Counted from the first letter of the stretch, positions 16,869 to 62,675 are shown. The stretch: DNA of 64,000 nt from an uncultured Acidobacteriota bacterium (GCA_963712365.1 CAVQHO010000001.1:32608-96607), one strand, 5' to 3'. Translations and numbers: made by a program. The notes: generated from the sequence alone by a model not told the origin.

Positions 16869-16948
16869 CAGCAAGGCGTCGAACACTGGTGTCCCATCGA
16901 ATTCGCACCGACACGCTCATCTCTAAGCAGGGGGCATAGAATAGCGGC

Positions 16949-18458: not shown

Positions 18459-18589
18459 TCTCCCGCCAAACCGCGAGACTCTGAAGTTGGCCCCACCCGC
18501 ATGTCGCTTTAAACGTTTCCCGAAAATGGATGTAACGATTTTTCGTGACCCATCACCATCGGGATGTGACCGGTGCCAGCAAACAGCGC

Positions 18590-45379: not shown

Positions 45380-47296
45380 TTATGGTTGCCGGGGTTCACC
45401 CCCCGAATCCCAAGTCAGAGTCAGCGGATCACCAGAGCTTAGGGCATCCCGAATAGCAGAACGGTTCGGGCCAGCCCGATTAACCGCCGCGGACAAGGTT
45501 TGGAGAACCGTTACGATCGGCGTTCCCGGTGGGAGGCGGAATATCCACGGGATGTTGGTCGATGTCAGAGTGCGGTCGGACGAAATGGCAAGCACGGGGA
45601 TAAAGGTCTTCACCGCGATTTGTTCGGCGAGGTGGCCGGAATCGCGATCCAGAGCGATCAGAGCAAGGATGTGGTCGTTGTAGACGGCATTGACCAGATC
45701 GCTTGAGGCCTTCCCCCAAGATGTTTGGGAGTCAATCGCTATAAACGAATAGCGCCTGGAACCGAGATTTGACTGCTCCGAGAAACGGGAAAGTTCCGCA
45801 GAATGGACAACGTCTGAGGCATGAGGGCCGAAGATACCGATCTCCAGGCTACTCGCGGATTGAGTGGGCGTGGCTGGTCCCAAGTACTGAACACCAGTTT
45901 CGCCTACCTTGGCATATGGCTTCTCCATCGTAATGGGACGGTATTCGATACGGCCGTCGTGAATCCGAGCGAGAAACATCGGAGCGATGTTTTTGCAATT
46001 CGGATCGAAGATCATGTTCCCGGTAACGCCCTTGTAGCTCGTAAGGCCGGTGAGGGCATCGCGGATACGGCCTTTGTTTAGGCCCGCGCGACAGATGGCT
46101 TCGAGCAAGATCTGCATCTGGTCGTATGCCAAGGCAGCAAAGTGGTCGGGCTTCTCGTGATAGCGGGCTTGGTAACGTGAGACGAAATTCAGCCAGCGCG
46201 GGTCATTGCGGGAAGGATCGTAGGGGTAGAGTGCTTCGAATCCTTCGGCGGAAGGACCTGCAAGTTGAAGTAGTTCCTCTCCGATCGTGCGGTGGCTGCC
46301 GAAAACGCGTTGCTTCATACCAAGTTCACGCATCTGTTGCAGGATCATCGCGGCTTCGGGAATGTCGGTCCAAAGGACGATGCCGTCGACTCGCGAATCT
46401 TGGATTACCTCAAGTTGATGGCGGAAATCTGTGTCTCCCCGGAGGAATTTTTGCTCGATCACGACTGGATGGCCGAGGCGGCGGGATGCGTCGCGGAACT
46501 TGATCACTCCGAAACGTCCGTAGCGGTCGTTGATGCGCAGCAGAGCGATGCGTTTCAGGCCAAGTTCGGTGTAGAGATGCCGCGCGAGGGTATAGCCCTG
46601 AACGCGATCATCCTGAATATCGGTGTGATACCACGGGATGATGGTTTCGGGGATGGTGGGATCGGTGGAGGCACTATTGACCAGCGGAGTCTCCGCTTTG
46701 AGCGTTAAACGCAGCGCGATGTGGGTCGACTCTGAGCTGATCGAGCCAAACATGGCCCAGACTCTGTCGTCATAAATCATACGAACAGCGTCATTGGAAG
46801 CGGCTCCCCAGATGGCGGAGTCCTTCGAACTACCGGCACTGTAAGAGTTGCTGTTTTGCCAGTTGTCATAGTCATTGTGGGTGACGATGCGGAATGGCTT
46901 GCCTCCATAGCCACCTGAGGCGTTCGCCTCGTCAACCGCCATCTGAGCACCATTGAGCATGCGCGCTCCGCGAGTCTCGTCGGGATGGTCGTAGAGCGGC
47001 GCCAGGAAACCGATGCGGACCTCGGTCAAATCTTTGAGATCCGGGTCGGGAATATCGCGTGCCGCGCCGTTGTACTCGATTAAGTTCTGGTAGTGCTCGT
47101 AGTACGGAGGGGTGAACTTGGAATACGGACGCAGGTCATCGGGTGCCGCCGCATATGGCTTCAAAGTGCGGGGGGCTGGAATACCGGGAGGAGTTTTGCC
47201 ACACGCACAAGGAACGGGGGTCTGCGCGCATGCAGCACAGATGATAGCGATGGAAATCACGACGGCAGAGGCGATTCGCATAAACACACCATTCAT
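45380..47296 (-). CDS. Periplasmic-binding-protein type 1 (LivK-like) ABC substrate-binding protein, extended C-terminus, no adjacent permease or ATPase
   Basis: Signal MNGVFMRIASAVVISIAIICAACAQ. RIGFLAPL...NGAQMAVDEANASGGYGGKPF is typical of Leu/Ile/Val-type binding proteins. A partial second PBP1-like region extends it to about 640 aa. Confidence 0.8.
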   Translation of the reverse strand: MNGVFMRIASAVVISIAIICAACAQTPVPCACGKTPPGIPAPRTLKPYAAAPDDLRPYSKFTPPYYEHYQNLIEYNGAARDIPDPDLKDLTEVRIGFLAPLYDHPDETRGARMLNGAQMAVDEANASGGYGGKPFRIVTHNDYDNWQNSNSYSAGSSKDSAIWGAASNDAVRMIYDDRVWAMFGSISSESTHIALRLTLKAETPLVNSASTDPTIPETIIPWYHTDIQDDRVQGYTLARHLYTELGLKRIALLRINDRYGRFGVIKFRDASRRLGHPVVIEQKFLRGDTDFRHQLEVIQDSRVDGIVLWTDIPEAAMILQQMRELGMKQRVFGSHRTIGEELLQLAGPSAEGFEALYPYDPSRNDPRWLNFVSRYQARYHEKPDHFAALAYDQMQILLEAICRAGLNKGRIRDALTGLTSYKGVTGNMIFDPNCKNIAPMFLARIHDGRIEYRPITMEKPYAKVGETGVQYLGPATPTQSASSLEIGIFGPHASDVVHSAELSRFSEQSNLGSRRYSFIAIDSQTSWGKASSDLVNAVYNDHILALIALDRDSGHLAEQIAVKTFIPVLAISSDRTLTSTNIPWIFRLPPGTPIVTVLQTLSAAVNRAGPNRSAIRDALSSGDPLTLTWDSGGEPRQP

Positions 47297-47306
47297 TTCC
47301 GGAACG

Positions 47307-47789
47307 TCAACGGCTGGTTGATTCGCGCCGAAACATCGCAATCGCTTCGATCTCGATCAAGAGATCCGGACGGCAAAGGATGGCTTGAATGCCTGTGGAC
47401 GCCGGTAAAGGATCGAGTCCCTGCGACTTGAAGAACGCGGTGCGCTCCTGGTTAAAGGCCTCGTAGTCGCGTTCGATGTCGCGCAAATAGCAGGTTGTGC
47501 GCACGATATCGTGCCAGGTTGCTCCTTCGGCCGCGAGAAGCTGAGTGATGTTCTCGTACGTGCGCTGGAGCTGAGCCCTGAAATTGCCTACGTGAACCGT
47601 GCGACCAGCCTCGTCAATGCTGGCGGTGCCGGAGATCAGAAGAATGGTGAGACCGTTCAGATCGATTCTCATTCCTCGCGAAAACGCGCTTCCGTAGTCG
47701 TAAGCTTCGTTTAGCGTTTTGTGATTAGTCATGGCCCGTTTCACTACCGGTGCCGTGGTCACTTCTGCGATCAGCTCTTCTAAGTTCAT
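47307..47789 (-). CDS. YjgF/Rid superfamily protein
   Basis: 160 aa. LLISGTASIDEAGRTVHVGNFRAQLQRTYENITQLL...IEIEAIAM. The ISGTASI motif resembles the FkbO/Hyg5-type branch (recalled, not verified). Confidence 0.75.
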   Translation of the reverse strand: MNLEELIAEVTTAPVVKRAMTNHKTLNEAYDYGSAFSRGMRIDLNGLTILLISGTASIDEAGRTVHVGNFRAQLQRTYENITQLLAAEGATWHDIVRTTCYLRDIERDYEAFNQERTAFFKSQGLDPLPASTGIQAILCRPDLLIEIEAIAMFRRESTSR

Positions 47790-47803
47790 AAGATTGCGCC
47801 TGC

Positions 47804-48922
47804 TTATTTCGTGGTCGAATTTGGTTTCGCTGCGCTCAATACCTTTGCTGTTGTTGCAGATGATTTTTGACGTATGCCATGGCTTAAGCCCCTTGCCGTC
47901 GCGACCCAGATGTCATCACCCTGAAAATCAACGCCAAGGATGTAATTGTGGGCGGGCGCCGTTTGCACTCGGACCGCTTTGACTACTCTGGCTGCGTTTC
48001 GCACCAGCATTTCCGGCTTGTGAGTGTCGAGATTCGGACGATAGACCGCCCAATTCGTCCCGTCGTAATAGGCAAGCCCCTTATCGGTGGAAAACCATGC
48101 ACGATGGGCATCGAGCGCTTTAACCTGGCTCAGAAAATTACTCGGCAGGCCGCTATCTTTCGTGAGGAAGTTATGCCAATAACGGCCATCGTATCGGCTA
48201 GCGCCGAAATATGTGGCGACCCAAAGAATCTTGTCGACGTAGCTGACCGATGTTGTGATCTCGTGGATCAACCCTTGATCTTTCATCACTACCATCTCGG
48301 TCTCGCCGTCGGGGTCGTTGTAATCTTTCCAGTGTTCCGTGTGCTGGTCGTACTCGAGGACGCCACCTCCCCATACCGCGTAATAGACCTTGTCTTCCGC
48401 GGGGCTGACGGAATAAGTCCAGATTTCGTACATCGGAGTGTTGCGCTCGTTGAAGAGCGACCATTGGCCGCTGCGTATGTTTAGACGGCTCGCGCCGGCG
48501 GCTGTCGCCGTCCACACGAAGTCGCCCTGCACACCCACCCCATAGACGATGTCGTTGCTCAACCCAGAGTTCAGTTGAGTGAACGTATCAAACCGTCCCG
48601 CTGACAACCGGTTGAGCCCTGCCATGGTTCCGATCCACAGATCGCCCGTGCTCTTGTCTAGGGCGAGGGAAAGGACCGCTTGGTGCGCGAGGCCATCGGC
48701 TGGACGGAAGACTCTCCATGAGCCACGCTCGTACAGACCGAGCCCATTGTCGGTGCCCGCCCATATGCGTTGCCCGTCGACCAGAACACAGTACACATGA
48801 TTGTCGGGCAGACCGTTGATGGCAGTGAAATTTTCCCATCGAAACATCGGCACGTCTTGGGCCCACACGAACGATCCGACAAGGGTAATGGCACACAACG
48901 CGATGAATAATTTTGCTTTCAT
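47804..48922 (-). CDS. Exported beta-propeller protein (two-component-regulator propeller repeats)
   Basis: Signal peptide. Repeated GLP.N.V..v..D....WigT..GL motifs. Confidence 0.75.
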   Translation of the reverse strand: MKAKLFIALCAITLVGSFVWAQDVPMFRWENFTAINGLPDNHVYCVLVDGQRIWAGTDNGLGLYERGSWRVFRPADGLAHQAVLSLALDKSTGDLWIGTMAGLNRLSAGRFDTFTQLNSGLSNDIVYGVGVQGDFVWTATAAGASRLNIRSGQWSLFNERNTPMYEIWTYSVSPAEDKVYYAVWGGGVLEYDQHTEHWKDYNDPDGETEMVVMKDQGLIHEITTSVSYVDKILWVATYFGASRYDGRYWHNFLTKDSGLPSNFLSQVKALDAHRAWFSTDKGLAYYDGTNWAVYRPNLDTHKPEMLVRNAARVVKAVRVQTAPAHNYILGVDFQGDDIWVATARGLSHGIRQKSSATTAKVLSAAKPNSTTK

Positions 48923-50811
48923 AGAGTTTTTAGGTACTCGATGAGATCGTTCAACTCATCTTTAGTTAGGTCGTTGGTTACACCGTGCGTGTCTTTCGGA
49001 TTGAAGATCGTCCAGATTTCTTCGAGTGAGCGGGCCGAACCATCATGCAAATAAGGAGCTGAGTAAGCGATGTTGGAGAGTTGCGGGACATCAACCAGGG
49101 GAGAGCGATCAATCTTTTTTCCGGAGCCAACGTCAAACTGACGCTGATTTGTGTACTTCGGCCCGCTATGGCAAGAGCCGCACTGATTTGCCTCTGGAAT
49201 TGGTTTTCCGTTTTTCGATTTCACACGTTCAAAGATCGCCTTGCCACGCTCCTGAGCTGCCGTCAAATTACCGTCAGATGAGCGATAACGATTTGGGCGA
49301 TATGGCAGCGAGTAGACGAATGTGACTAGATCAGTAAGCTGCTGCTGAGTGAAGCTCTGCGAGCGGAAGAAGAATTTCTCCGTTCGAGGTCCACACTCGG
49401 TAGGCATGTCCGGATTTCCGCCATTCCATTTGAATGGTTCCGTGCCTGACAAATTTTCCAGCGAGCGGTTGTCGACAACATCTTTGCCGAAGCCGTCCGG
49501 TTCAAGATCCCATTGCAAACCGTCGATGGTTGCGTCGATGTGGCAGTTCGAACAGCCAAACTGTCCCTGGAACGCAAACTCCGAGGAATAGAAGAGGCGC
49601 TCTCCTCTTCGCAAGGCATCGACATTCTCGGGACCACCTAGAGAAATCGTCGAGATGACCTTTTCAGACTTTGTGTCGATGACGCTGATCGTGTCGTCGA
49701 GCCGGTTCGCGACGTATAGACGCCTTCCATCAGGCGAGATCGAAAGCCCGCGCGGATTCCGACCTACCGGAATCCGTTGCGACACGTAATCGGCGGATGC
49801 AGAAAGGTCGTTAACGAATGACTTGCGACGGCGCTGAACGGTCGCTAGCAGGCGGCTGACATCGATTGCCGTAATGCTTTGCGATCCCGCGGTCGAAACA
49901 AAGATCCTCGACATATCGGGAGTGATCGCGACTCCCCAAGGCAATGCGTAATACTGATCGAGCTCGTCGATCGGAATTTGAATGACGCCGTTGATCTTTT
50001 TTCCAAACAGTGTGAGCGAGTCACCGAAAGCCCATCCGTGTTCAACGTGTGCGAGCGGAATCAGATTCTTGGGCCTGAGCGCCGCAGCGAACCCGAGCAT
50101 ACCGTCGGCAGACATCGCTACATGAAAAACTCCTGCAACATTGTGTAGTGGTATACGTTGAACCACTCTCTTGTCGCCAGTATCAATGATCGTAATTTCC
50201 GACTCGGGCACGGTTCGAACGGCGCCGGGATTTGGATAGACATGAGTGCAGAGGATTGTCTTGCCGTCGGGTGAAAGTGAGAGATAACTGGCGCCGCGGC
50301 CCGCCAAGAGCCGTTTCAGTTCCTTCCCTGTGCCAAGATCGATGACAGAAACGTCGCCGCTCAAACGGTTTGCTACATACAGAGTTGCTTGCTGCCGGTC
50401 AACGACTACACCGTGCGGCTCGAATCCAGTCGGCAGGTTCTGTACGACTTCCAGAGTAGTAGTGTCGATTACCGAAACGGTGTCGGAGGATGCGTCGGTC
50501 ACATAGAGCAGCTTTCCATCCGCCGAGATCGCGATGCCTCGCGGAGAATGGCCAACCGGGATCCTTCTGGTGACCTTTTCCGTGATCAGATTAACGACGC
50601 GGAGCTCATCACTGTCTTGACAAACTACGTAGAGAAGGCGTCCATCGGGCGCGAAAGCCATCTCGATTGGCGAGAGATATCGTTCTTTCAGTTGAGACGT
50701 CGGCTGTTTCGGTGCGGGGCGGGCTGCAATTGCAAGAAGGGTCAGGACGAGTACGCCAGCGATACGGAAGATCGCGGGTTTTCTTCCCTGAAATGGAGTT
50801 CCGGAGGACAT
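48919..50811 (-). CDS. YVTN-type beta-propeller fused to a di-heme cytochrome c peroxidase (CCP/MauG) domain
   Basis: Repeats of LYV.N..S..VSVID. C-terminal CSNCH and CGSCH with the YLHDGSARSLEE motif of di-heme peroxidases. ATGA overlap with the next gene. Confidence 0.8.
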   Translation of the reverse strand: MSSGTPFQGRKPAIFRIAGVLVLTLLAIAARPAPKQPTSQLKERYLSPIEMAFAPDGRLLYVVCQDSDELRVVNLITEKVTRRIPVGHSPRGIAISADGKLLYVTDASSDTVSVIDTTTLEVVQNLPTGFEPHGVVVDRQQATLYVANRLSGDVSVIDLGTGKELKRLLAGRGASYLSLSPDGKTILCTHVYPNPGAVRTVPESEITIIDTGDKRVVQRIPLHNVAGVFHVAMSADGMLGFAAALRPKNLIPLAHVEHGWAFGDSLTLFGKKINGVIQIPIDELDQYYALPWGVAITPDMSRIFVSTAGSQSITAIDVSRLLATVQRRRKSFVNDLSASADYVSQRIPVGRNPRGLSISPDGRRLYVANRLDDTISVIDTKSEKVISTISLGGPENVDALRRGERLFYSSEFAFQGQFGCSNCHIDATIDGLQWDLEPDGFGKDVVDNRSLENLSGTEPFKWNGGNPDMPTECGPRTEKFFFRSQSFTQQQLTDLVTFVYSLPYRPNRYRSSDGNLTAAQERGKAIFERVKSKNGKPIPEANQCGSCHSGPKYTNQRQFDVGSGKKIDRSPLVDVPQLSNIAYSAPYLHDGSARSLEEIWTIFNPKDTHGVTNDLTKDELNDLIEYLKTL

Positions 50812-52443
50812 CTACGGCTCCTCCACGACAAGAACTCGATCGATGGCTAGATTCTCCAAGACCTGCTCGCGCCCGCTAGTCCAGCGCACAGTCAGCTTGT
50901 CAACCTTTGTTGCCGATCCGAGGCCGAAGTGGGTGCGCCCATCATCCTGGGAAAGATAGCCGGATCCGGCTACGCGTTCCGCGATCTGGGCACGCCCGCC
51001 AGCGACGATTTCCAGGCGCGTTCCGATTCCGTCGCGATTGCTCTTCTTCCCTTTTAGCTGCACCGCGAGCCAGTGATGATTGTTCTGTGAGATGTTGTGC
51101 AGCAGGATCGCTGGCGCACCAAGGTTGACGACGAAGGAATCAAGCTTGCCGTCATTGTCGTAGTCCGCGAAACATGCCCCTCGGGAAACGGTCTTCAGTT
51201 CGAGTAGCGGACCCGCGTCGCGTGATACATCAGTGAACTTGCCGTTGCCAAGCCCGCGAAACAGCGACTGTTCCTGCGGAACCAGGTGGATCAACCCGCC
51301 GTGAAAGATCAGAATGTCGAGCCAGCCGTCGTTGTCGAAATCATAAATGCCGGATCCCCAGCTCGTGTACTGGGCCGTGGCTTGAGAGATACCGGAGGTA
51401 GGACCGATGTCCTCGAAACCATTCGGGGATGCGTTACGCATCAGCCGGTTATATTTTGAATCGGTGACAAGAAGGTCGAGACGGCCGTCGCCATCGATGT
51501 CGGCGAAAACCGGACCCATGGCGGAAGTGCTCTCGCCATTCTGTCCGTAGGCCACGCCGACATCTGATGCAATTTCTTCAAACGTTCCATCGTGCTTGTT
51601 GTGAAACAGAAAATTCTCGGTCTTGTCATTGGCGACATAGATATCCGGATAGCCATCGTTATCGAAATCAGACGCTGTGACTCCCATGGTGCGGCCCTTG
51701 AACCCGCCGATGCCAGACTTGTCTGTGACGTCAGTGAATGTTCCGTTGCAGTTGTTGTGAAATAGACGATTCGTGTCCCCCGCGTAGTCGAGCGGTCCAG
51801 GGTAGTTGTCGGCCGCATAGAAATTGCGATACTTCGGATCGAATTTCACATAGCGGCCGACGAATAGGTCGACACATCCGTCGCGATCGTAGTCGAGCCA
51901 TGTTGAGCTGATGGACCAGCCAGTGACTTCGACGCCGGCCTTGGCTGTCACGTCGGAGAAAGTCCCGTCCCCGTTGTTGCGGTAGAGAATTGCTTTGCCG
52001 TAGCCGGTGACGAAGAGGTCTACGAAACCGTCGTTGTCGAAATCTGCCGCTATTGCGGCCATTCCATAGATGTTGGCTGCAACGCCGGCTTGGTCCGTGA
52101 CGTCAGTGAACGTGCCGTCGCGATTATTTCTGTACAAATGGTTGTGAGGAGGAGTCGCAGGAGGCTGTTTCAGCGGGTAGGGATGAATGCCACCGTCGAG
52201 CGGCTTGCCGCTGGCAACGTAAAGGTCGGGAAATCCGTCGTTGTTGTAGTCGAACCAGACACAACCCGAACCAGTGCTTTCGAGAAGAGAACCAAGCTTT
52301 TGCGATCCGAAGCTGTGTGTGAATCCAATTCCAGACTTTATGGTCGCATCGTCAAACTTGATGGTGTTGGCTGCGTTGGTGGGTAAAGTCTGTGCGACTG
52401 ATGATGAGGCTAAAAGAAGAATGGCGACAACCCTGAGTATCAC
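50812..52443 (-). CDS. CRTAC1 family protein (FG-GAP/VCBS repeats plus ASPIC/UnbV domain)
   Basis: Repeated FDNDG.PD.YV motifs. C-terminal NRDGIGTRLEIVAGGRAQIAERVAGSGYLSQDDGRTHFGLG. GTGA overlap with the upstream gene. Confidence 0.85.
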   Translation of the reverse strand: MILRVVAILLLASSSVAQTLPTNAANTIKFDDATIKSGIGFTHSFGSQKLGSLLESTGSGCVWFDYNNDGFPDLYVASGKPLDGGIHPYPLKQPPATPPHNHLYRNNRDGTFTDVTDQAGVAANIYGMAAIAADFDNDGFVDLFVTGYGKAILYRNNGDGTFSDVTAKAGVEVTGWSISSTWLDYDRDGCVDLFVGRYVKFDPKYRNFYAADNYPGPLDYAGDTNRLFHNNCNGTFTDVTDKSGIGGFKGRTMGVTASDFDNDGYPDIYVANDKTENFLFHNKHDGTFEEIASDVGVAYGQNGESTSAMGPVFADIDGDGRLDLLVTDSKYNRLMRNASPNGFEDIGPTSGISQATAQYTSWGSGIYDFDNDGWLDILIFHGGLIHLVPQEQSLFRGLGNGKFTDVSRDAGPLLELKTVSRGACFADYDNDGKLDSFVVNLGAPAILLHNISQNNHHWLAVQLKGKKSNRDGIGTRLEIVAGGRAQIAERVAGSGYLSQDDGRTHFGLGSATKVDKLTVRWTSGREQVLENLAIDRVLVVEEP

Positions 52444-53798
52444 TTCGTGCCTCCGGAGGTCGCCTGAGAGGGCGAGCCAGTCATACCGGCGGGAGTGGTC
52501 GATTTCAACAGCGTCATGGGAACCGCATTCTCAGGAGCGGTTTCAGGACCGGCGTGGCATCCAACGCATCCTCGCTGCTCGCCGCGCGCCATCCAGAAAA
52601 ATCCGGATTCGCGTTTCAACGTCCTGCCCGTAATGTCGAGCAGTTCGATTTGAAGTGGCTGGTCGCTTGGAACCTGGACAAAGAAGGATCCGTCCTTCTC
52701 TACGGGTGCGGTTCCGAGCAATTTTGAATTCCCGTCGTCGCCGCGCATGTATAAGCGGACCGCGTGTATGGAGCCCGGTACGAATTGATACTTCGACGTG
52801 TAGGCGTTCAGGCAAAGCAGGTTGGCATTCGACCAGTCATGCAAGCCCGAGGGGTGGCGTTTTGGGATTTGCCGAGTGCTGATCGCTCTCGGTTGCACAA
52901 GATTCATGGTTCGGTCGGAAACCAAGGGCTGTAGTTCCGTGGAGCCTGCGGTCCAACCCTTCAGCTGAAACGTAGCTTTCGGCCCTGGTCGCCACGAAAC
53001 AAGAAAGGACGGGTCACGCTCCTCGGTGACGTCCGCATATTCGCCCAGAGGAGAGGAGATCGAGAGTTCCAGCGCATGCGCCGAGGTGAAGCGGGAGAGG
53101 CCGCGGGTCGAAGCGAATACTATGTCTCCAGAAGTTGTCTGGGTGGCCGCGTATCGCGCCTTCCCGTGATCACATCTGTAAGACTCAACTCCGCTGCCGT
53201 CGGAATAGACCGTGTAGATTTCGGGAGTTGTGTTTGATCCGAGCGGATACCCTGCCTCGAACAGCAGCCGGCCGTCGCGGAGGACTGCGGCAGGCATAGC
53301 GTTAGCGGGGATATAGGTGAGAGCGCGAGACTCGCCCCCGGAAAGATCGGCAACTTCGATGACAAACCGGCCACTGACCTTACGAGCAAATACGAATCGA
53401 TCGTCTGGAAGATAGAGGGGCCGAATGCAATCCTCGGCGCGGGATGTGACGCGACGGGCATCGCTGCCATCCTTGTTCGCTTCCCAGATTTGCCATGGAT
53501 CCTGCAGGTGACGTTTGGCGGCGATCAGAACTCTTTCACCGTCGAAGGAGACGTCGGGGTCCGCGGACTCGGCAAAGTCGGGGACGAAGGGATGGGTACC
53601 GCTCTCGTTTTTCAAAATTATGGTGGCGTCACCGCCGAACCGGTCCGCCCCGTGCATCCACGCCAGTGACTCGTAACGGCTCGCGGACGTATACAGAAGA
53701 TCGGGAAGGGACGAGGGAGCAGACGGTCTGTTATTCGGAGTTGCAGGTCCGATCGCAACCGATAAGACCAGGAGGACGGCGATTGCACGCGCAAGCAC
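52440..53798 (-). CDS. Exported TolB-like propeller protein with hydrazine-synthase-alpha-like (HZS_alpha) C-terminal heme domain
   Basis: Signal peptide. C-terminal FFVQVPSDQPLQIELLDITGRTLKRESGFFWMARGEQRGCVGCHAG (single CxxCH). The family call is from memory of this motif. Confidence 0.6.
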   Translation of the reverse strand: MLARAIAVLLVLSVAIGPATPNNRPSAPSSLPDLLYTSASRYESLAWMHGADRFGGDATIILKNESGTHPFVPDFAESADPDVSFDGERVLIAAKRHLQDPWQIWEANKDGSDARRVTSRAEDCIRPLYLPDDRFVFARKVSGRFVIEVADLSGGESRALTYIPANAMPAAVLRDGRLLFEAGYPLGSNTTPEIYTVYSDGSGVESYRCDHGKARYAATQTTSGDIVFASTRGLSRFTSAHALELSISSPLGEYADVTEERDPSFLVSWRPGPKATFQLKGWTAGSTELQPLVSDRTMNLVQPRAISTRQIPKRHPSGLHDWSNANLLCLNAYTSKYQFVPGSIHAVRLYMRGDDGNSKLLGTAPVEKDGSFFVQVPSDQPLQIELLDITGRTLKRESGFFWMARGEQRGCVGCHAGPETAPENAVPMTLLKSTTPAGMTGSPSQATSGGTK

Positions 53799-54691
53799 TA
53801 ATCCGCTCCTCCTGACGCGAGGAGTTGCGGGCGAAGAGATCGGCTGTCCCGCTGGAGTTCGAGGTAGGGTTGGAGATCGACCATCATTCGACGGAACTCG
53901 GCAAACGAGAGCGATTGATTGCCATCACTCAGAGCTGACTCCGGCTGAGGGTGAACTTCCACGATGAGCCCATCTGCTCCGACAACGGCCGCCGCCCGCG
54001 AGAGCACTGGCACAAGCGATCGAACCCCGGCAGCATGACTGGGATCAACGATCACGGGTAGATGCGAGACGGTCTTCAACACTGGGACGGCAGCGATATC
54101 GAGAGTATTGCGGGTCGCAGTTTCAAAGGTGCGAATGCCGCGCTCGCACAAAATGATTTCTGGATTTCCCGCCATCGCAATCACTTGCGCTGAGCGAAGG
54201 AGTTCCTCCAGAGTTGCCGTCATGCCACGCTTTAAGAGCACAGGCCTTCCGCAACTTCCCAGGCGCTCGAGTAGCGCGTAGTTCTCCATGCTGCGCGTGC
54301 CGACCTGCATGATGTCCACGTATTCCGCGATGAGTTCCACGTCGTCCTCGCTCATCACCTCGCTGACAATGGCGAGGCCTGTGGCTTGCCTGGCCTTATC
54401 GAGAAGCTTTAGGCCTTCGACACCAAGACCTTGGAAGGCATACGGAGATGAGCGGGGCTTATAAGCGCCTCCGCGCAAAATACGTGCGCCAGCCTCCGCA
54501 ACAGCTTCGGCCGTTTCTAGTATTTGCTTCTCCGATTCGACCGCGCAGGGGCCGGCCATCACCACGAAATCACTGCCTCCAATTTCGAGGTCTCCAACCT
54601 GGATCAAGGTTTGGCCACGCGTGTCGGTCTTGGCGACAAGATCGAAACAAGAGAATTGGCCGTTCCATTTCGGATTCATGACCGAGGTCAT
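53798..54691 (-). CDS. aroF: 3-deoxy-7-phosphoheptulonate (DAHP) synthase, type I-beta
   Basis: [35 protein letters not shown]. The start could be 54691 or 54763. The stop shares one nt with the next gene's GTG (TAGTG). Confidence 0.9.
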
Positions 54692-54821
54692 TCTAGTGAC
54701 GCCTATATCGGCGATCACTAATGCGTATCTGCTAGAACTAGCGAAATCAGCGGTTCGATGCACATCGCGTTAGCTGAATTACACCGTTAACTCCTTTGTA
54801 GAGAGACCTCAAGGCGAGCCC

Positions 54822-54837
54822 TGTGACCGCGCTCACA
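54822..54837. promoter_or_regulatory. CRP-type palindrome TGTGACCGCGCTCACA
   Basis: Perfect TGTGA-N6-TCACA in the divergent region between aroF and the Qrc-like operon. Confidence 0.45.
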
Positions 54838-55085
54838 GTTGTGCGAGAGCGTAAGCACAAACGAAGCAGTTTTCGCACCGCACATAACCGTGCGTTCAGG
54901 ATCGACTATGCGCTTTGGGGGCGGGATGAAGTCGCCAGGTGGAAGTGTTGGAATCGCCTACAGAGTTCGTTGGGAAAACCAACACGAGTACGCGTCTCTT
55001 CGCCGCAAGCTGTTGAGCTCACATGATGGCCATCGGCGTGCATTTCACCTGGTAGATGAGTTCCATCGAACAGGAGGTCATCGCG

Positions 55086-55385: not shown

Positions 55386-56231
55386 ATGGCCTGCCCACTG
55401 CTGCGGGAAGGTAAGGCGCGGTATTGCCATGCGGCCCCGGTTCGCAAGCTGATACTCAGCGGGCCTGGCGCCACTAACGGCGGGTTGTGCGATTCTCCGC
55501 AGTACCGCAGCTGTGAATTGGCTGCAAAAGATGCGGAGGCGCTTGATCGCTGTCCAGGGCTGGAGGAGATACGCGTACAGTACTGCGGGGTCTCGCCCGT
55601 GCCGCAATTCATTCCGTTCAGCGATTCCCAATTGTCAGGATGCACGAGCGACAACTACCGTTATTGCGATTCCTACTTGCATCTGTCGCAACCTCACGTC
55701 ACAAAGCCGCCTGCGACGCTTCTCTACTCTCCAAATCATTTCTGGCTGGATGCGGAGGAGTCGGGACTGTGTCACATCGGCGTCGATGCATTCGTCGCCG
55801 ATATCGCGGGTCAGGTCGACGGCGTAACGTTCGTCACGGCTCGCGGGACGCACTGCCCCGCCCTGGCGCTAACGATAAACGGCGTCGAATGGCCGATGAG
55901 CTTCCCGAATCCGATGATGATTCAAAGAGTGAATGGGCGCTTGCGCAGCGATCCCGCCCGATTGACCCTGGATCCGTACGGAACAGGATGGTTGTTCGAA
56001 GGCTGGGAAGTTCCGGGCCGAACGCGGACGGGCTTGCTTCGATCGCCGCAGGCAGATCTCTGGCAGGCCAATGAGCGCGAACGACTGAATCAAGAAATTC
56101 ACGACAGGCACGCTCCCGGATGTGATGGTGGAACCCCGGTCAAGGGTGTAGCGCAATTACTCGAGCGCCAGCACCTGGTCTGTCTGTTCCAGCATTTTTT
56201 CTCAAGAACGGACTGGACGGCGGAAAAATGA
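55386..56231 (+). CDS. Cys-rich protein with glycine-cleavage H-protein-like domain (no lipoyl-Lys evident)
   Basis: Duplicated N-terminal module CP.L.E....YC...P...(I)........C.S..Y..C at residues 3-43 and 56-94. Then YSPNHFWLDAEESGLCHIGVDAFVADIAGQVDGVTF...DPYGTGWLFE resembles the GcvH fold. No signal peptide. Confidence 0.7.
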   Translation: MACPLLREGKARYCHAAPVRKLILSGPGATNGGLCDSPQYRSCELAAKDAEALDRCPGLEEIRVQYCGVSPVPQFIPFSDSQLSGCTSDNYRYCDSYLHLSQPHVTKPPATLLYSPNHFWLDAEESGLCHIGVDAFVADIAGQVDGVTFVTARGTHCPALALTINGVEWPMSFPNPMMIQRVNGRLRSDPARLTLDPYGTGWLFEGWEVPGRTRTGLLRSPQADLWQANERERLNQEIHDRHAPGCDGGTPVKGVAQLLERQHLVCLFQHFFSRTDWTAEK

Positions 56232-56818
56232 AGATTCATCGCAACCTGATCTTCTTCACGTTGGGAGTGGCCACCGCATTATTTGTGGGCTGGTTTCTAT
56301 TTCCGCGACTTCTTTACGTGAAGAAAAATCAGCCTTTCGATTTCCTTCACAAAACGCATGCAGACAAGTCAGGTCTGAGCGACTGCAGTGAATGTCACAC
56401 CATTCACGAAGATGGAAGTTTCTCTGGCCTGCCTCCGACCGAAAAATGCGCTGGTTGCCATTCCGATCGGCTGGGCGAAAGCAAGGCCGAAGCGTTGTTA
56501 GTAAACGACTTCGTCAAACCCGGTCATGAGACTCCATGGCTGGTCTATTCAAAGCAGCCGACGAATGTCTGGTTCTCGCACGCGATTCATGTCAAACGGG
56601 CAAAGCTTGCGTGCTCGGAATGTCATTCCAGCTACGGGGACAAAGACGAAGTTCGAATTTACGAGGTCAACCGGATTAGCGGATACAGTCGGGATATTTG
56701 GGGACACTCGATATCGCGACTGCGGCGTGCGCAGCACGACGGCATGAAGATGACCGACTGTGAGGCATGCCATTCGCGTCACCACGTGGAAACAGGCTGC
56801 CTCGGTTGCCATCAATGA
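56228..56818 (+). CDS. qrcA: Membrane-anchored pentaheme cytochrome c3 family protein (QrcA/ActA-like)
   Basis: N-terminal TM helix. Five CxxCH motifs (CSECH, CAGCH, CSECH, CEACH, CLGCH). ATGA overlap with the upstream gene. Confidence 0.75.
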   Translation: MKIHRNLIFFTLGVATALFVGWFLFPRLLYVKKNQPFDFLHKTHADKSGLSDCSECHTIHEDGSFSGLPPTEKCAGCHSDRLGESKAEALLVNDFVKPGHETPWLVYSKQPTNVWFSHAIHVKRAKLACSECHSSYGDKDEVRIYEVNRISGYSRDIWGHSISRLRRAQHDGMKMTDCEACHSRHHVETGCLGCHQ

Positions 56819-56828
56819 AAGGTCGAAG

Positions 56829-58499
56829 ATGAAGTTCAGTCGGCGGGATCTTCTGTTATGGGGTGCAGGGGCCGCGGTAGGCGCCGTGGCCACTCCAGTG
56901 CCATGGAAGGTATTGGACGATGTTTCGATCTGGAGCCAGAACTGGCCGTGGATTCCGCAGCCGCCCCGCGGACCGGTGGAAGTGAAAGCGTCGTTCTGCT
57001 CATTGTGTCCGAACGGATGCGGGCTGCGCGTGAAGATGTCATCCGGCTACGCAGTGGGTGTTGCGGGGATGTCGACGCATTCAGTCAGCCGAGGGGTGTT
57101 GTGCCCTCTCGGATACGCCGCCCATCAACTCAATTGGCATCCGCGCCGACTCAAGACTGTGAAGCATCGCGGGATGAGTTCATCGTGGGGCGAGGCGCAA
57201 TCAGCGTTTGTGAAGGCCTGCAGCGAGGGCGCGATCATGGTCATCGACGGCTATCCCGGGAGAGCAGCTTCCTCGGTATTGCAGTCGTTTGTAGAAAAGC
57301 TGCATGGCTCCTACCGCGCCCTGCCCAATTCGGAAGTACGAACCCTCTTGCCTTACGAAAAATGGATCGGGGGTTCCGCTCATTCGCTTGGCTATGATCT
57401 CGAAAACGCACGAACCGTCGTCAGCTTTGGAGTTCCCTTGCTTGATGGATGGGGCGTCCCGGGTCGGTTTCCCTGGCTCTGGGCCGAAGGTGGCACGGGC
57501 GGCCGCGATGCAAAGTTGCGGCTCATACAAGTCGATGCTTCGATGTCGCGGACAGCCGCTCGTTCCTGGCGATGGGTATCGATCAAGGAAGGATCGGAGT
57601 CGGCTCTAGCAGCGGGATTAGCCAAGGCACTGATTCAACAGAAATTAATACCGGCTCACGATGAATTCGCGTTGCCTACCCTTCCTGATGTCGCGCAACA
57701 AACAGGCTTGCCGGTAGATGCCATTCTGGACCTGGCGCGAGTTGTCGTAGAACGAGGTCCTGTGGTGGGGATTGCTCGCGATGAAAATCCTGCGGTTGCG
57801 GCTTTGAATGTGGTGCTTGGATCTGTCGGCGTACCCGGTGGAATCGTACGTAGATCAACAGCTGAGGTGACTCGTCCTCAGACCCAACAGACGCGTCCGA
57901 AAGTTCGAGCTGTCTTGCTAGATGGAAGCGTCCCTTGGGATTTCACGATTGATACCGATGCTGAAATCTTTCGCTTTGCCGCCTGGGATGGCGGCGCGAA
58001 AACAGCGGACTGGCTGCTTCCAGCCCCAGGCTTTCTCGAAGAAGTGTCCGACATACCCGCGGCGCCTACAGCCTCAGTGGACACGTACACGATCGCAGCG
58101 AGTCTGACAAAGCCTGCTTTCGAAGTGCGCAGTGCTGCCAAGTTTCTGACTGGCGTGGAGCCCAACCTAACTCCAATCGAGGAGATCATCCATGCTCGCT
58201 GCCAGAATCTTTTTAGGCGGCGAGCAGGCGCTGTTCACAGAGAAAAAGCGATTCCGATCTCAGAGTTCGCCTCTGCACAGAAATTAGAAGAGGCGCTATC
58301 AAACGGCGCCGTGTGGGTCAACGACGGCAAGGCCGGTGCCAAGATCGAATGCCGACTACGAGAATGGCCCACCTCCACTTTAGTCTCGCAACAGGACGAT
58401 TGGGCAGCGTCGTGGCAACCGCCAGTTCTCCCTCCGCTGGCGTCAAAGCTCTTCGTCGAGTCGAAATTAAGAAACTCTCCCAACCGGAGTAACACATGA
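56829..58499 (+). CDS. qrcB: Tat-exported molybdopterin-oxidoreductase-like subunit (QrcB-like, probably cofactor-less)
   Basis: MKFSRRDLLLWGAGAAVGAVATPVPWKVLDDVSIWSQNWPWIPQPPRG and FS0 motif CSLCPNGCG. At 556 aa it is shorter than catalytic PsrA-type subunits. Confidence 0.75.
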   Translation: MKFSRRDLLLWGAGAAVGAVATPVPWKVLDDVSIWSQNWPWIPQPPRGPVEVKASFCSLCPNGCGLRVKMSSGYAVGVAGMSTHSVSRGVLCPLGYAAHQLNWHPRRLKTVKHRGMSSSWGEAQSAFVKACSEGAIMVIDGYPGRAASSVLQSFVEKLHGSYRALPNSEVRTLLPYEKWIGGSAHSLGYDLENARTVVSFGVPLLDGWGVPGRFPWLWAEGGTGGRDAKLRLIQVDASMSRTAARSWRWVSIKEGSESALAAGLAKALIQQKLIPAHDEFALPTLPDVAQQTGLPVDAILDLARVVVERGPVVGIARDENPAVAALNVVLGSVGVPGGIVRRSTAEVTRPQTQQTRPKVRAVLLDGSVPWDFTIDTDAEIFRFAAWDGGAKTADWLLPAPGFLEEVSDIPAAPTASVDTYTIAASLTKPAFEVRSAAKFLTGVEPNLTPIEEIIHARCQNLFRRRAGAVHREKAIPISEFASAQKLEEALSNGAVWVNDGKAGAKIECRLREWPTSTLVSQQDDWAASWQPPVLPPLASKLFVESKLRNSPNRSNT

Positions 58500-59239
58500 G
58501 AGCGCGGTACGGCATGGTTATCGATCTCGACCGATGCACCGGATGCGGCGCATGCATGGTCGCATGTACAGCTGAAAACAACGTTCCGTCCCTTCCACAA
58601 GCGAGTGCGCGAACCGGCATCACTCCGGTGCTCGTGCGCCGAGTGTCCAACGGAATGGAAGGCATCGCGAAGCGAGAAATATTTATTCCGATCATGTGCG
58701 CCCACTGCGAACACGAAACTCCGTGCGTGAAGGTGTGTCCGCAACAAGCTGTGGAAGTGGACAAGGCAACAGGGATTGTCATGCAGATGCCGCAGCGCTG
58801 CCTTGGATGCCGCTATTGCATGACTGCGTGTCCTTATCACGCCCGCTACTACAACTGGTGGGATCCTTCATGGCCGGCAGGGATGGAGAGTAGCCTGAAT
58901 CCGGGAGTGGCGGTGAGGATGCGGGGCGTAGTCGAAAAGTGCAACCTTTGTCACGCACGCTTCCACGCCGCTAAAGAAAAAGCGGCTGCGGCTGGCCGAT
59001 CGGAGATCGATCCAGCCGATTACATCCCGGCATGCGTGGAATCCTGCCCGACAGGCGCAATCCGATTTGGAAATCTCGCGGACACGCAAGATCCCGTCTC
59101 AGAAGAAGTGAAGGCGCCCGAGACGTTTCAATTACTTGCGCGTCTTGGCACGGCGCCGAAGGTTTACTACAAGTCGAGGGAACCATGGGTGAGAAATCTG
59201 GCGGAACCCGGGCGCCAGTCGGAGGCTCAGCATGGCTAG
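58496..59239 (+). CDS. qrcC: 4Fe-4S ferredoxin-type subunit (QrcC/PsrB-like)
   Basis: YGMVIDLDRCTGCGACMVAC, CAHCEHETPCVKVCP, CLGCRYCMTACPY, CNLC...CVESCPTGA. Confidence 0.85.
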   Translation: MRARYGMVIDLDRCTGCGACMVACTAENNVPSLPQASARTGITPVLVRRVSNGMEGIAKREIFIPIMCAHCEHETPCVKVCPQQAVEVDKATGIVMQMPQRCLGCRYCMTACPYHARYYNWWDPSWPAGMESSLNPGVAVRMRGVVEKCNLCHARFHAAKEKAAAAGRSEIDPADYIPACVESCPTGAIRFGNLADTQDPVSEEVKAPETFQLLARLGTAPKVYYKSREPWVRNLAEPGRQSEAQHG

Positions 59240-60493
59240 CACGGTTCTCACTGACGCTCGATGGATCAGTCGCGGGGAAGAAAGGACGTCGCTCACGCGA
59301 TTCCTGCTGTGGCTCGCACCCTGGGCGTTGCTGCTGGTCCTTGGCGTCTATGCGGCCGGTCTTTGCCTCTACTTCGGCCTCAACCAAACGAACATGGACA
59401 ACCGCTTTGCCTTCGGGCTCTGGATCTTTCTAGATCTCGGCATCATTGCACTGGGAGCAGGAGCGTTCTTTACCGGATTGCTCGTTTATATTCTGAAACG
59501 AACGGAATTGAAGCCGATCTTGAACACGGCCGTCGTCGTTGGGTTTATCTGCTATAGCGGTGCGGTCGGCATACTGATGATCGATGTGGGGCAACCGTTA
59601 AGGGCGTGGTTCACATTCTGGCATCCGAACACACACTCCATGCTCACGGAGGTCACGTTCTGCATTTCGTGTTACCTGCTGGTGCTTAGCCTCGAGTACA
59701 TCCCCTTGCTGTTGCGCAACCGAAACCTAAGCAAGATACCCTCATTCCTTGTCTTCGAACATCAACTGCACAAACTAGTTCCCGTTCTCGCCGGCGTTGG
59801 AACGCTACTCTCCTTCTTCCATCAGGGATCGCTTGGTGGACTGTACGGAGTGCTGCGAGGACGGCCATTTGCCTTCAGGGACGGCATCCTGATCTGGCCG
59901 TCAACGTTTTTTCTGTTCATCCTTTCAGCAATTGCCTCGGGCCCGAGCTTTCTGATGTTGATCGCCGCCACCGCCGAGAAGCTCACGGGCGGAAACTCGT
60001 GCCGAGCCAGTTATTTCGACGCCTCGGATTTATATCGGGAACTCTGCTTGGTGTTTACGTCGCGGCAAAATCGATTGATACGCTGATCTGGCTTAACTAC
60101 ACATCCCCAGCTGAAGGTTTCGAACCCTGGCAGTTCTACTCTTATCGTCCCTTCGGTACGCCGATTCTGTTCGTTGAGATTGTGCTTCTAGGTTTGGTGC
60201 CGGCGTTCCTGTTGACGTTCCGAAAGACAGCCAATCGGAAGGGTCTGCTTCTTACGGGCGCGGCATTGGCTTGCGTAGGGATATTGCTGAACAGATTCGT
60301 CCTAACGATTCAGACCCTAGCGCTGCCGACGCTTCCATTCGATGAGTTCCTGAAGTACACGCCGAGTTGGCAGGAAGTCGCCAGCTTCGGTGGAGTCGTG
60401 GCATACGGGGTGATTGTTTACTCACTGTCGTATCGATATTTGCCGCTTTTCGCGAACTCAAAGGGAGAGGACACGCATGTTTCCGGGAATTGA
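59232..60493 (+). pseudogene. qrcD: NrfD/PsrC family quinone-interacting membrane subunit (QrcD-like), one frame disruption
   Basis: ORFs 59232..60086 and 59999..60493 join at ..AEKLTG/(R)KLVPSQLFRRLGFISG, consistent with one missing C in ACGGGCGGAAAC near 59990. Multiple TM helices. Confidence 0.8.
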
Positions 60494-61301
60494 CGGATTT
60501 CACTGGGCGTTCGGCCATGTTCTTTTTCTAACGCTGTTCTTCGCCGTGGTTCTAACGATTTCCGCAACCATCGCTTCAGCGGTAATGAAGACCGTCAACG
60601 ATTTTCGGAGCCACAAAGCCGCTGAGCTGTGCTGGAAATCGCATTTCTCAAAGGTGCCCGATTCCAGCAAGCGATGCCGCCATGAACTGGCTGGAAGAGT
60701 CATCTCGAGAACCTGCGACAACAACTTTGACTGCCGAACCTGCAAGAACTACTCGCACTTTGCGGTACTGCCAGCATCAGGCAATGCACATCCGTGTGGG
60801 CTGGATTTCCCAGACGACCGCCTGTATCACCGAGGTCATACTTGGGTGAAAACGGTTGAGGATGGAAATTTGCTTGTCGGGCTAGACAGCCTGGCAGAGT
60901 GCCTAATCGGCGATCCTGATTCTGTCCGGATGCCAGATTTAGGCGACGAAATCGAGGCGAATCAGACCGCGTGGCGCATCCGGAAGAACGGGGCCGAGAT
61001 CTCTGTTCGCGCGCCGATCGAAGGAACGATCCTGGAGGTTGGCGGACCCGGCAAGGGCTGGTATCTCAAGATGCGCCCACGATCAGATCTGAACGACCGC
61101 GTGGCATTGCGCCACCTTCTCCGTGGACCGGAAGTGAGAGGATGGATCTCCCGAGAAATGGAGCGCCTGCAGATCCAGCTGCGAACACCTGACAGCGCTC
61201 CTGCGCTTGCAGATGGCGGGGTGCTGCTGCCCCACCTGATGGATTCAATCCTAGAGGCAGACTGGGACGCAGTACTATCCGACACGTTCCTCACTGATTG
61301 A
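60477..61301 (+). CDS. Membrane-anchored Cys-rich protein with second GcvH-like domain
   Basis: ATG at 60477 follows AGGGAGAGG and overlaps the qrcD end by 17 nt. TM helix FGHVLFLTLFFAVVLTISATIASAV. Cys cluster CWKS...CRHE...CDNNFDCRTC. Then YHRGHTWVKTVEDGNLLVGLDSLAECLIG...APIEGTILEV...GKGWYLKM. Confidence 0.7.
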   Translation: MFPGIDGFHWAFGHVLFLTLFFAVVLTISATIASAVMKTVNDFRSHKAAELCWKSHFSKVPDSSKRCRHELAGRVISRTCDNNFDCRTCKNYSHFAVLPASGNAHPCGLDFPDDRLYHRGHTWVKTVEDGNLLVGLDSLAECLIGDPDSVRMPDLGDEIEANQTAWRIRKNGAEISVRAPIEGTILEVGGPGKGWYLKMRPRSDLNDRVALRHLLRGPEVRGWISREMERLQIQLRTPDSAPALADGGVLLPHLMDSILEADWDAVLSDTFLTD

Positions 61302-61318: not shown

Positions 61319-62675
61319 TCAGTGCGAGATTTCGTAACGCTTGAGTTTGTCGTAGAGCGTCGAACGGTCAATCCCTAACGCCATGGAAGCTTCCTTTACG
61401 TTGCCGTGCTTTCTTTCCAGGGCTGCCAGGATTGCGCGCCGTTCCAATTCATTCAGCGAAACCTCTGGAACCTCCCACTCCTCCGCCTGACCTGGCACTG
61501 GCTGCATCCACGAAAAGTCCTGTTCCTCAAGAGTGCCGTTGTGACAGGTCACGATGGCTCTCTCGATTACATTTTCCAGTTCACGAACATTTCCGGGCCA
61601 GTCATGACTCAACAGCAATTTCAGGGCTCCGCTGGAGATTCCGGTGATATCTTTTCCGAGCTCTGTTGAAATGCGCTGGACAAAATGCTCGGCAAGCAGG
61701 GGAATATCTTCACGGCGTTCGCGTAAGGCAGGAAGTCGAATCTCGATGACGTTCAGCCGGTAGAAAAGATCTTCGCGAAATCTTCCGTGCTGCACTTCTT
61801 CCGCCAGATTTTTGTTTGTCGCCGCGATGACTCGAACGTCGACCTCGACTTCTTGCGTTCCGCCCACACGATAGAAGCGACGCTCCTGAAGAACGCGCAA
61901 GAGATCGGCCTGTAGCTTGGGAGAAATGTCTCCAATCTCATCGAGGAAGATCGTGCCTCCTGCCGCTGACTCAAACTTGCCTTTTGCTTGACTAGTCGCC
62001 CCGGTGAAAGCGCCTTTCTCGTAGCCGAACAGTTCACTTTCCAAAAAGTGTCTCAGTCAGGGCAGCGCAACTCACCGCAATAAATGGTTTGTCGGCACGG
62101 TTGCCGGAGAAATGAACTGCACGCGCGACGAGTTCCTTGCCCGTACCACTCTCGCCGCGAATGAGGACGGTGCTGCTCAGGCTGGCGACTTCCTGCGTTA
62201 GGGAAAGGATCTCGCCCATCCGCGGATTTTTGGTGATGATGTCGTGATGGCGGTATTGTCGCGTGAGCTTCTTGCGAAGAATTGCATTTTCACTTTGCAG
62301 CTTTTTCAGCTTGAGAATCCGTGAGACTAGCATCGAGATCTCCTGCGGATTGCAGGGTTTTACGATGTATTCCTGGGCGCCCTCTTTCATTGCTTGGATC
62401 GCGGTATCGACGGTTGCGTATGCAGTGATGATGATGATGGAAGCTTCGGGACGAAGGCGATGGATTTCCATCATGGTTTCGATTCCGTCCATGCCCCCGG
62501 GCATTTTGAGGTCAACGAAGCAAATGGCATAGTCTGTGGAGCGGGCTTGCTCGAGCGCCTTTTGGCCGTTCGCCGCGGTATCGACTCGGTAGCCATCTTC
62601 GCGCAACCACGCAGCCATCGACTCGCACATTACGTCTTCGTCGTCGACGACAAGAATCGGCCAGTTCTTTTTCAT
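61319..62675 (-). pseudogene. Sigma54-dependent response regulator (NtrC family), one frame disruption
   Basis: ORF 62034..62675 holds the receiver domain (ILVVDDE...FVDLKMPG) and Walker A (GESGTGKE). ORF 61319..62044 holds [15 protein letters not shown], the rest of the AAA+ domain and a Fis-type HTH. They join if one A is removed from the A5 run (CCAAAAAGTG) near 62040. Confidence 0.85.

Follow-up and report, generated by a model that had tools for sequence, protein, structure and literature searches.

To our knowledge, hydrazine synthase (HZS, EC 1.7.2.7) was long believed to be without relatives. Two views of its homologues in non-anammox bacteria, both dating from 2025, now conflict. A cold seep study (PMC11828985) reads hzsA-like genes as potential, hidden anammox in ten phyla, including the Acidobacteriota, and presents transcription and AlphaFold-Multimer complexes for such genes. 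Hagglund et al. (PMC12758564) describe alpha-CRTAC1-beta-gamma clusters in non-anammox bacteria and conclude that the homologues of clades I-III are something else than hydrazine synthases, key residues being unconserved in these clades and heme alpha-II missing from clades II and III. They also report a two-residue gap in the Tyr591 region of every clade I-III homologue, and the accompanying GTDB match tables include beta-gamma homologues from Sulfotelmatobacter and Koribacter. A broader enzyme family with other substrates had been proposed earlier (PMC10732223). Here we describe a locus of this kind, a seven-gene operon at 45380-54763 on the minus strand of a 64,000-nucleotide stretch of DNA (the window) from an uncultured Acidobacteriota bacterium. 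The host is a Terriglobia acidobacterium, Sulfotelmatobacter-like. The operon carries an HZS-like gene pair, four conserved companion genes and a gene for 3-deoxy-D-arabino-heptulosonate 7-phosphate (DAHP) synthase. In the order of transcription its features are as follows.

g1, 53798..54679, minus strand: type I-beta DAHP synthase, catalytic core only, 293 amino acids from the most likely start (the longest reading frame extends to GTG 54763); Pfam DAHP_synth_1, 254 bits
g2, 52440..53798, minus strand: short HzsA-like protein with signal peptide, TolB-type propeller and one c-heme domain (CVGCH, residues 411-415); from Pfam, phmmer and Foldseek
g3, 50812..52443, minus strand: exported CRTAC1-like FG-GAP propeller with an ASPIC/UnbV C-terminal domain; Pfam FG-GAP_3 six times, 205 bits, and UnbV_ASPIC, 74 bits
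g4, 48919..50811, minus strand: fused HzsB-HzsC-like protein with signal peptide, seven-bladed YVTN propeller and di-heme domain of the cytochrome c peroxidase (CCP)/MauG type (CSNCH 420-424, CGSCH 544-548); from phmmer, NCBIfam and Foldseek
g5, 47804..48922, minus strand: exported stand-alone Reg_prop beta-propeller; Pfam Reg_prop
g6, 47307..47789, minus strand: cytoplasmic Rid-superfamily protein of a distinct subfamily, 160 amino acids, with a conserved N-terminal extension; Pfam Ribonuc_L-PSP, 67 bits
g7, 45380..47281, minus strand: exported LivK-type (Peripla_BP_6) binding protein with a truncated second binding-protein lobe; Peripla_BP_6, 148 bits in two stretches
Upstream intergenic region, 54680..55055, no strand: presumed promoter region of the operon, inferred from position only

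The hydrazine-synthase-like pair and its module

The matches of g2 to HzsA and of g4 to HzsB and HzsC identify the two as an HZS-like alpha plus beta-gamma pair. The g2 protein scores 55.7 bits against Pfam HZS_alpha (cut-off 26.6) and its best sequence match is chain A of Kuenenia stuttgartiensis HzsABC (PDB code 5C2V; phmmer, 5c2v_A, E 5.5e-7), the alignment covering both propeller and heme domain. Residues 45-380 of g4 align with the full chain of HzsB (5c2v_B, E 4.7e-44) and residues 396-630 with HzsC (5c2v_C, E 2.4e-24). Structure predictions, which the earlier note on this DNA had proposed for the two proteins, give HzsA as the top fold for g2 and HzsB for g4. The AlphaFold2 model of g2 (pLDDT 70) retrieves 5c2v_A at E 1e-14, against 5e-8 for TolB, in a Foldseek search, and the g4 model (pLDDT 86) retrieves 5c2v_B, by far the top match, at E 3.6e-32 with a TM score of 0.90. 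That note had read g4 as a YVTN propeller joined to a di-heme peroxidase; the domains stand, but the reading missed the full-length fused beta-gamma homology, visible with 5c2v_B, 5c2v_C, the NCBIfam model hydrazine_BC and Foldseek alike.

The likeness to the Kuenenia enzyme extends to architecture. The alpha-type protein consists of a propeller and a heme 'middle' domain, the beta-type part of a seven-bladed propeller with a helical insertion late in the propeller, and the gamma-type part of a di-heme CCP-like domain with a cysteine where HzsC has its third heme link; the proteins are exported. Fusion of beta and gamma is shared with the Scalindua hydrazine synthase. Together g2 and g4 carry three c-heme motifs, and it is probable, with good confidence, that they form an HZS-like complex. 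The window differs from HzsABC in placing alpha before beta-gamma and in surrounding the pair with four or five further conserved genes, namely those for CRTAC1, Reg_prop, Rid, binding protein and, often, DAHP synthase. The sequences YRCDHG and HPSGLHDW in the g2 propeller were considered as a possible Cys/His metal site. They do not vary among close homologues but are absent from two distant variants described below (L085 and L088), and so are not a feature of the family.

Is this arrangement peculiar to one genome? A scan of one genome per species (alignment A3) gave 535 relatives, of which we annotated the best 80 loci with phmmer and the seven window proteins; denominators are the loci with enough sequence. 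All 80 are acidobacterial, from Terriglobales and Bryobacterales, with g4 identities of 57-88%. Other phyla were reached through single-protein look-ups only, and two of the contigs so obtained (P0246 and P0378) are too short for gene context. A g2 homologue occurs in the same order at 72 of 72 loci, a g3 homologue lies between those of g2 and g4 at all 75, and a g5 homologue follows g4 at 75 of 78; g6 and g7 keep their places at 70/75 and 66/69 loci, respectively. The order g2-g7 is thus kept in 93-100% of loci while the flanks vary. The flanking galK and a cluster resembling alternative complex III (ACIII) are shared only with the approximately 12 closest genomes, which marks the block of g genes as the conserved unit. 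The divergent ACIII-like cluster was itself considered as an electron partner and set aside, its synteny with the operon being restricted to those same genomes. Gene order therefore extends well past the window genome, which the earlier note had named as a check.

Median identities to the window proteins are 82% for g3, 81% for g5, 83% for g6, 80% for g1, 73% for g4, 72% for g7 and 60% for g2, so that g3, g5 and g6 are conserved about as much as the DAHP synthase. Metagenomes hold several thousand relatives of g4; identity is 75-88% among the best 120, most of the named ones being Candidatus Sulfotelmatobacter. More distant modules have the following compositions.

L085 (42% identity, Acidobacteriaceae): c554-TPR protein, CRTAC1, HzsA-like, CRTAC1, HzsBC-like, Reg_prop, Rid
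L086 and L087: CRTAC1 (in L086), beta-gamma protein with a c554 extension, Reg_prop, two binding proteins; no Rid
L088 and L089 (35% identity, 73% GC): HzsA-like, HzsBC-like and Rid only

The Reg_prop gene is present also in L085, L086, L100 and L145, and the Rid gene in L085, L088, L100 and L145, the loci L100 and L145 being described below. Since the distant variants keep subsets of the genes, the smallest set that recurs is alpha and beta-gamma, usually with Rid, to which propellers and binding proteins are often added. Several observations concern the neighbours of these modules. Radical-SAM genes lie on both sides of the three-gene variant (L088, 7342-8616 and 13043-15223). Additional CRTAC1 paralogues and proteins of approximately 1200 residues with TPR, FG-GAP and ASPIC/UnbV domains often adjoin hzs-like modules across lineages (L037 1959-5477, L100 8303-11950, L086 9567-13280, L074 5013-6671 and L076 14250-15923). 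In L145 (9712-12198) a GMC oxidoreductase gene and one resembling gluconate 2-dehydrogenase subunit 3 follow the binding proteins; the window has a GMC oxidoreductase at 2150-3853, far from the operon.

The seven open reading frames (ORFs) run head to tail and form one operon. As read from the sequence, g1 and g2 overlap by 1 nucleotide (TAGTG) and g2 and g3 by 4 (GTGA), g3 and g4 abut with 0 nucleotides between them (TAG then ATG), g4 and g5 overlap by 4 (ATGA), and 14 nucleotides separate g5 from g6. Ribosome-binding sites of the GGAGG type precede g2, g3 and g4. The tight minus-strand coupling of seven genes described in the earlier note is borne out by these ORFs and junctions and by recurrence of the order in 80 genomes. 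Its upstream junctions of 0-4 nucleotides and its 14-nucleotide gap stand, but the last gap, given as 10 nucleotides, does not: g7 homologues start at the counterpart of MRIASAVV, which makes ATG 47281 the most likely start (product of 633 amino acids) and the g6/g7 gap 25 nucleotides. Signal-like N-termini are conserved on g2, g3, g4, g5 and g7 and none was seen on g1 or g6, in agreement with five exported and two cytoplasmic proteins; the earlier domain assignments for all seven proteins likewise hold against Pfam and NCBIfam.

The linked DAHP synthase

The g1 protein scores 412 bits against NCBIfam PRK08673 (cut-off 335) and 366 bits against TIGR01361 (cut-off 268), covering profile positions 69-332 only. 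The conserved protein begins 11 residues ahead of the match and, as homologue conservation starts at MNPKWNGQF, translation most likely starts at ATG 54679 rather than GTG 54763. A match from position 69 leaves no N-terminal regulatory domain of the ACT-like or chorismate-mutase kind. Alignment with the truncated core of the T. maritima enzyme (3pg8, 312 bits) places the GPC, KPRS, DPSH, VEVH and LSDG motifs, residues of which have roles known from that enzyme, in register. The g1 protein thus belongs with the DAHP synthases of Pyrococcus and Aeropyrum in the core-only subclass. A homologue search returned best 120 matches that are all 83-93% identical.

A DAHP synthase gene lies directly upstream of g2 at 48 of 68 loci, in most Terriglobales and a few Bryobacterales. 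At L076 the gene is inverted and still adjacent to g4. Taken alone, this evidence makes a hitch-hiking housekeeping gene a fair reading. Metagenomes were then scanned with a Bryobacterales DAHP synthase from one of the loci as seed, which gave 67 loci, nine of them with hzs-like genes, four in the window arrangement. In L098, L100 and L101 the genes run HzsA, HzsBC, Reg_prop, Rid, binding protein, DAHP synthase (after a 9-nucleotide gap), binding protein and then a giant TPR-FG-GAP-ASPIC protein, with a GC content of 41% in L098 and L100. In L144 and L145, from a Terriglobia metagenome-assembled genome whose module is only approximately 40% identical, Rid and the binding proteins flank the DAHP synthase. 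All three linked copies that were profiled (window, L100 and L145) start at PRK08673 position 69-77, and the other linked copies agree by ORF length, whereas each of the five long unlinked copies spans positions 1-336. There are also three unlinked copies of the core-only kind.

The best-surviving alternative accepts the six-gene HZS-like module and takes the DAHP synthase for a housekeeping aroF/aroG, upstream and co-transcribed by chance. We regard this as unlikely, with the caveat that a number of observations speak for it and against a functional coupling. The gene is absent upstream at 20 of the 68 loci, where unrelated genes (HflX, esterase, amidase) take its place, and from the three distant variants L085-L089; the module therefore works without a linked copy. 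The g1 median identity of 80% is what would be expected of an essential enzyme. At L095 a core-only enzyme, 71% identical to a linked DAHP synthase, stands alone beside ZnuA/ABC genes, and core-only enzymes may be the normal acidobacterial housekeeping form. No other gene of the shikimate or aromatic pathway occurs within the operon, no second DAHP synthase was seen within the 64-kb window, and the only sequencing runs found to contain the sequence are of soil and rhizosphere DNA, with no RNA run among them. A direct link through g6, as a mini-chorismatase joining DAHP synthase to hydroxybenzoate, was also considered and is kept as a lead only. The similarity is weak: g6 scores 32 bits against the chorismatase model TIGR04444 (cut-off 325), it is a single domain compared with the pseudo-trimer of approximately 340 residues in FkbO, Hyg5 and XanB2, and FkbO and Hyg5 are weaker PDB matches to it than RidA proteins are. 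Hyg5-type enzymes have a cysteine seven residues before a conserved glutamate (PMC7170507), and so does g6, but the same spacing in PSPTO_0102, not a chorismatase, makes it non-specific.

What argues against simple read-through from a housekeeping gene is recurrence inside divergent modules at other positions, together with the core-only form of the linked copies. A universal gene would not be expected at three positions of a rare module, in lineages of 41%, 57% and 59% GC and as enzymes only 50-64% identical, nor would it be expected to keep its adjacency after inversion. In a rough neighbour-joining tree the linked enzymes, 50-64% identical to the seed, occupy at least three clades. The three profiled linked copies have no regulatory domain, and most unlinked copies have one. 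Linkage that recurs regardless of position and involves an unregulated form usually marks an enzyme of pathway-specific precursor supply, as with PhzC and BagF. Like these and FevY, g1 stands in an operon otherwise unrelated to aromatic amino acid synthesis and has no feedback domain. It differs in lacking other biosynthetic enzymes at its side, its partners being exported heme and propeller proteins rather than tailoring enzymes, and it scores 322 bits against the NCBIfam BagF_FevY model (cut-off 700). We therefore consider it reasonably likely that the DAHP synthase is functionally coupled to the module, though not universally. The description of the operon as led by a dedicated DAHP synthase survives to the extent that the enzyme recurs inside divergent modules and is core-only in the linked copies tested; its absence from 20 of 68 loci and from three distant variants means that it is not universal.

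Companion proteins and alternative chemistries

The g3 protein matches human CRTAC1 (9etn, E 7.5e-16) and g5 matches the sensor propeller of a Bacteroides hybrid two-component system (4a2l, E 1.4e-22). The g7 protein resembles 4gnr (E 3.8e-30), and its final 170 or so residues are similar to a single lobe of another binding protein; in distant variants the binding proteins come as two separate genes. The earlier note described it as a LivK-like protein without transporter genes, and indeed none adjoin it: neither permease nor ATPase genes are adjacent to g7 or to its counterparts in L001, L002, L086, L100 and L145. A conserved P-C-x-C-G-x-N-P-P-G sequence (window 47160-47215, g7 residues 23-40) lies a few residues past the predicted signal-peptide cleavage site and is kept in homologues.

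The g6 protein falls below the cut-offs of every NCBIfam Rid model (TIGR00004, 49.7 bits against 106). In RidA, Arg105 binds the substrate carboxylate. Alignment with HI0719 puts Ser131 of g6 at this position (PAS in place of PAR), and the serine is invariant in the subfamily. Judged by its sequence, g6 is a member of the Rid superfamily only and not a RidA.

Two other chemistries were weighed for the heme pair. In the first, g4 is MauG- or MbnH-like and oxidises aromatic residues of a partner (g2, g3, g5 or g7) into a protein-derived cofactor, or else the module is a periplasmic peroxidase or an amine dehydrogenase of the quinohemoprotein type. Like di-heme CCP and MauG, g4 has two CXXCH motifs with a conserved tryptophan between them and a PYxHDG-like motif. 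It matches Pfam CCP_MauG above cut-off and the NCBIfam models for MbnH, MauG and quinohemoprotein amine dehydrogenase beta weakly, and 1jju_B is among its Foldseek matches. The tryptophan, Trp462, aligns with gamma-His144, and the position is Trp in 27 of 30 homologues and likewise in MauG and di-heme peroxidases. The presence of Rid and binding proteins would in addition indicate amine or amino acid oxidation: the Pseudomonas dguABC operon combines an amino-acid dehydrogenase with a Rid protein and a binding protein, and PA5083, which we take to be the Rid protein of that operon, matches the C-terminal half of g6 better than any other PDB entry. We nevertheless judge this chemistry improbable. 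The similarity of g4 to HzsB and HzsC is far stronger than that to MauG or CCP, with the sequence nearer HzsC than any CCP or MauG. Unlike those enzymes, g4 is fused to a YVTN propeller, is paired with an HzsA-like protein and has an extra cysteine, Cys473, aligned with gamma-Cys165, the third heme link of HzsC; only 19 of 30 diverse homologues keep this cysteine. Having no signal peptide, the Rid protein cannot act in the periplasm, it has no counterpart of the arginine needed for imine hydrolysis by RidA, and the DAHP synthase would be left without a role.

The second alternative, a true if divergent hydrazine synthase carrying out an anammox-like reaction in these Acidobacteria, as PMC11828985 proposed for hzsA-like genes, can point to homologues of all three subunits in g2 and g4, to the Cys165 equivalent and to the transcription and modelled complexes of that study, yet is scarcely credible given the residues and scores that follow. 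The single CXXCH of g2 lies 37 residues from the protein end, so that the C-terminal domain with the bis-His heme alpha-II is absent, and the protein reads CVGCHAGPETAPENAVP, the 12 residues after CVGCH being without the tyrosine that, as alpha-Tyr591, four positions past the CXXCH, ligates heme alpha-I in Kuenenia, where the CXXCH histidine binds zinc. Tryptophan replaces gamma-His144. NCBIfam scores fall far under the equivalog cut-offs: 220 against 1250 for hydrazine_BC, 40 against 800 for hydrazine_alpha, 171 against 560 for beta and 95 against 625 for gamma. The host is a soil acidobacterium, and the annotated ORFs of the 64-kb window include no anammox genes, neither hydrazine dehydrogenase nor hydroxylamine oxidoreductase being present among them. 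For these reasons the module very probably does not form hydrazine, as far as its sequences indicate. PMC12758564 reaches the same negative verdict for clades I-III. By its features, rather than by tree placement, the locus resembles clade II as described there, with the order alpha, CRTAC1, beta-gamma, a short alpha without heme alpha-II, a two-heme beta-gamma protein and Trp at gamma-His144.

Surroundings and proposed function

The upstream region 54680..55055 separates the operon from a divergent small ORF and the ACIII-like cluster. No Rfam family and no sigma-70 consensus was matched in it, promoter-like sites were below shuffled expectation, and intrinsic terminators show no excess within the operon block (seven found, 9.9 expected from shuffled sequence). 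The ACIII-like cluster (55386-61301, plus strand) encodes a GcvH-like protein, a multiheme cytochrome of the c3/c7 type, a molybdopterin-Fe4S4 protein, a 4Fe-4S protein, NrfD and a second GcvH-like protein at 60414-61301. Beyond it, ORF 61319-62044 (minus strand) matches only the C-terminal two thirds of the AAA+ domain of sigma-54 activators, plus HTH_8, and abuts another minus-strand ORF at 62034-62675; this may be a sigma-54 enhancer-binding protein with a frameshift or a wrongly called start. A second di-heme protein, unrelated to g4 (18545-20146, Pfam DHOR, a putative peroxidase), is encoded downstream of a cytochrome c7-like ORF (15821-16939) in the plus-strand segment 15821-20146. GC skew is negative from approximately 14 to 30 kb and clearly positive from approximately 32 kb, with a cumulative minimum near 30-32 kb, although this may only mirror gene orientation.

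We lean towards the view that the operon encodes a periplasmic oxidoreductase with three hemes and the build of hydrazine synthase, which requires a shikimate-derived compound or acts on one. The g2 and g4 proteins would assemble in the manner of HZS alpha, beta and gamma. Electrons would enter or leave by the C-terminal heme of g4 and, following the pattern of MauG and the di-heme peroxidases, would pass by way of the conserved Trp462 to the first heme, which would be catalytic and is probably cross-linked to Cys473. A small substrate or intermediate might be caught by g7 and handled between the first g4 heme and the alpha-type heme, with g3 and g5 as accessory periplasmic subunits. The g1 enzyme, co-transcribed and free of a feedback domain, would boost shikimate flux whenever the module is made, and a shikimate-derived aromatic would be consumed or required by the module, whether as substrate, as co-substrate or as precursor of a cofactor. 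On the cytoplasmic side g6 would act, g1 and g6 together supplying or processing the shikimate-derived compound. That an aromatic compound is the substrate or cofactor is a tentative suggestion. A bolder version is doubtful at present: a previously unrecognised periplasmic heme system that makes or transforms a shikimate-derived aromatic, for example by joining an aromatic partner to an amine or amino acid that the binding protein holds, through oxidative coupling or through formation of a C-N or N-N bond, with g1 and the unusual Rid protein as the cytoplasmic half. Such a system would give the hydrazine synthase scaffold a second, non-anammox chemistry, widespread in soil and peat Acidobacteria.

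The alpha-CRTAC1-beta-gamma cluster type is already published but functionally uncharacterised. A term search of the main text of PMC12758564 gave no DAHP synthase, the sections consulted do not mention Reg_prop or Rid partners, and binding-protein genes are given for clade III only. Three aspects appear new with respect to the literature cited here: a fixed six-gene module with Reg_prop, a Rid protein lacking Arg105 and a binding protein of one and a half domains; strong purifying selection on the partner proteins; and repeated recruitment of an unregulated DAHP synthase.

The operon is the form that the HZS homologue takes across the Acidobacteriota of soil and peat, at least 80 species-level genomes among the 535 relatives carrying it, and we caution that such genes should not be counted as anammox markers in soil metagenomes. 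The module, the failed residue tests and the recruitment of DAHP synthase turn a set of unknown heme proteins into a testable hypothesis.

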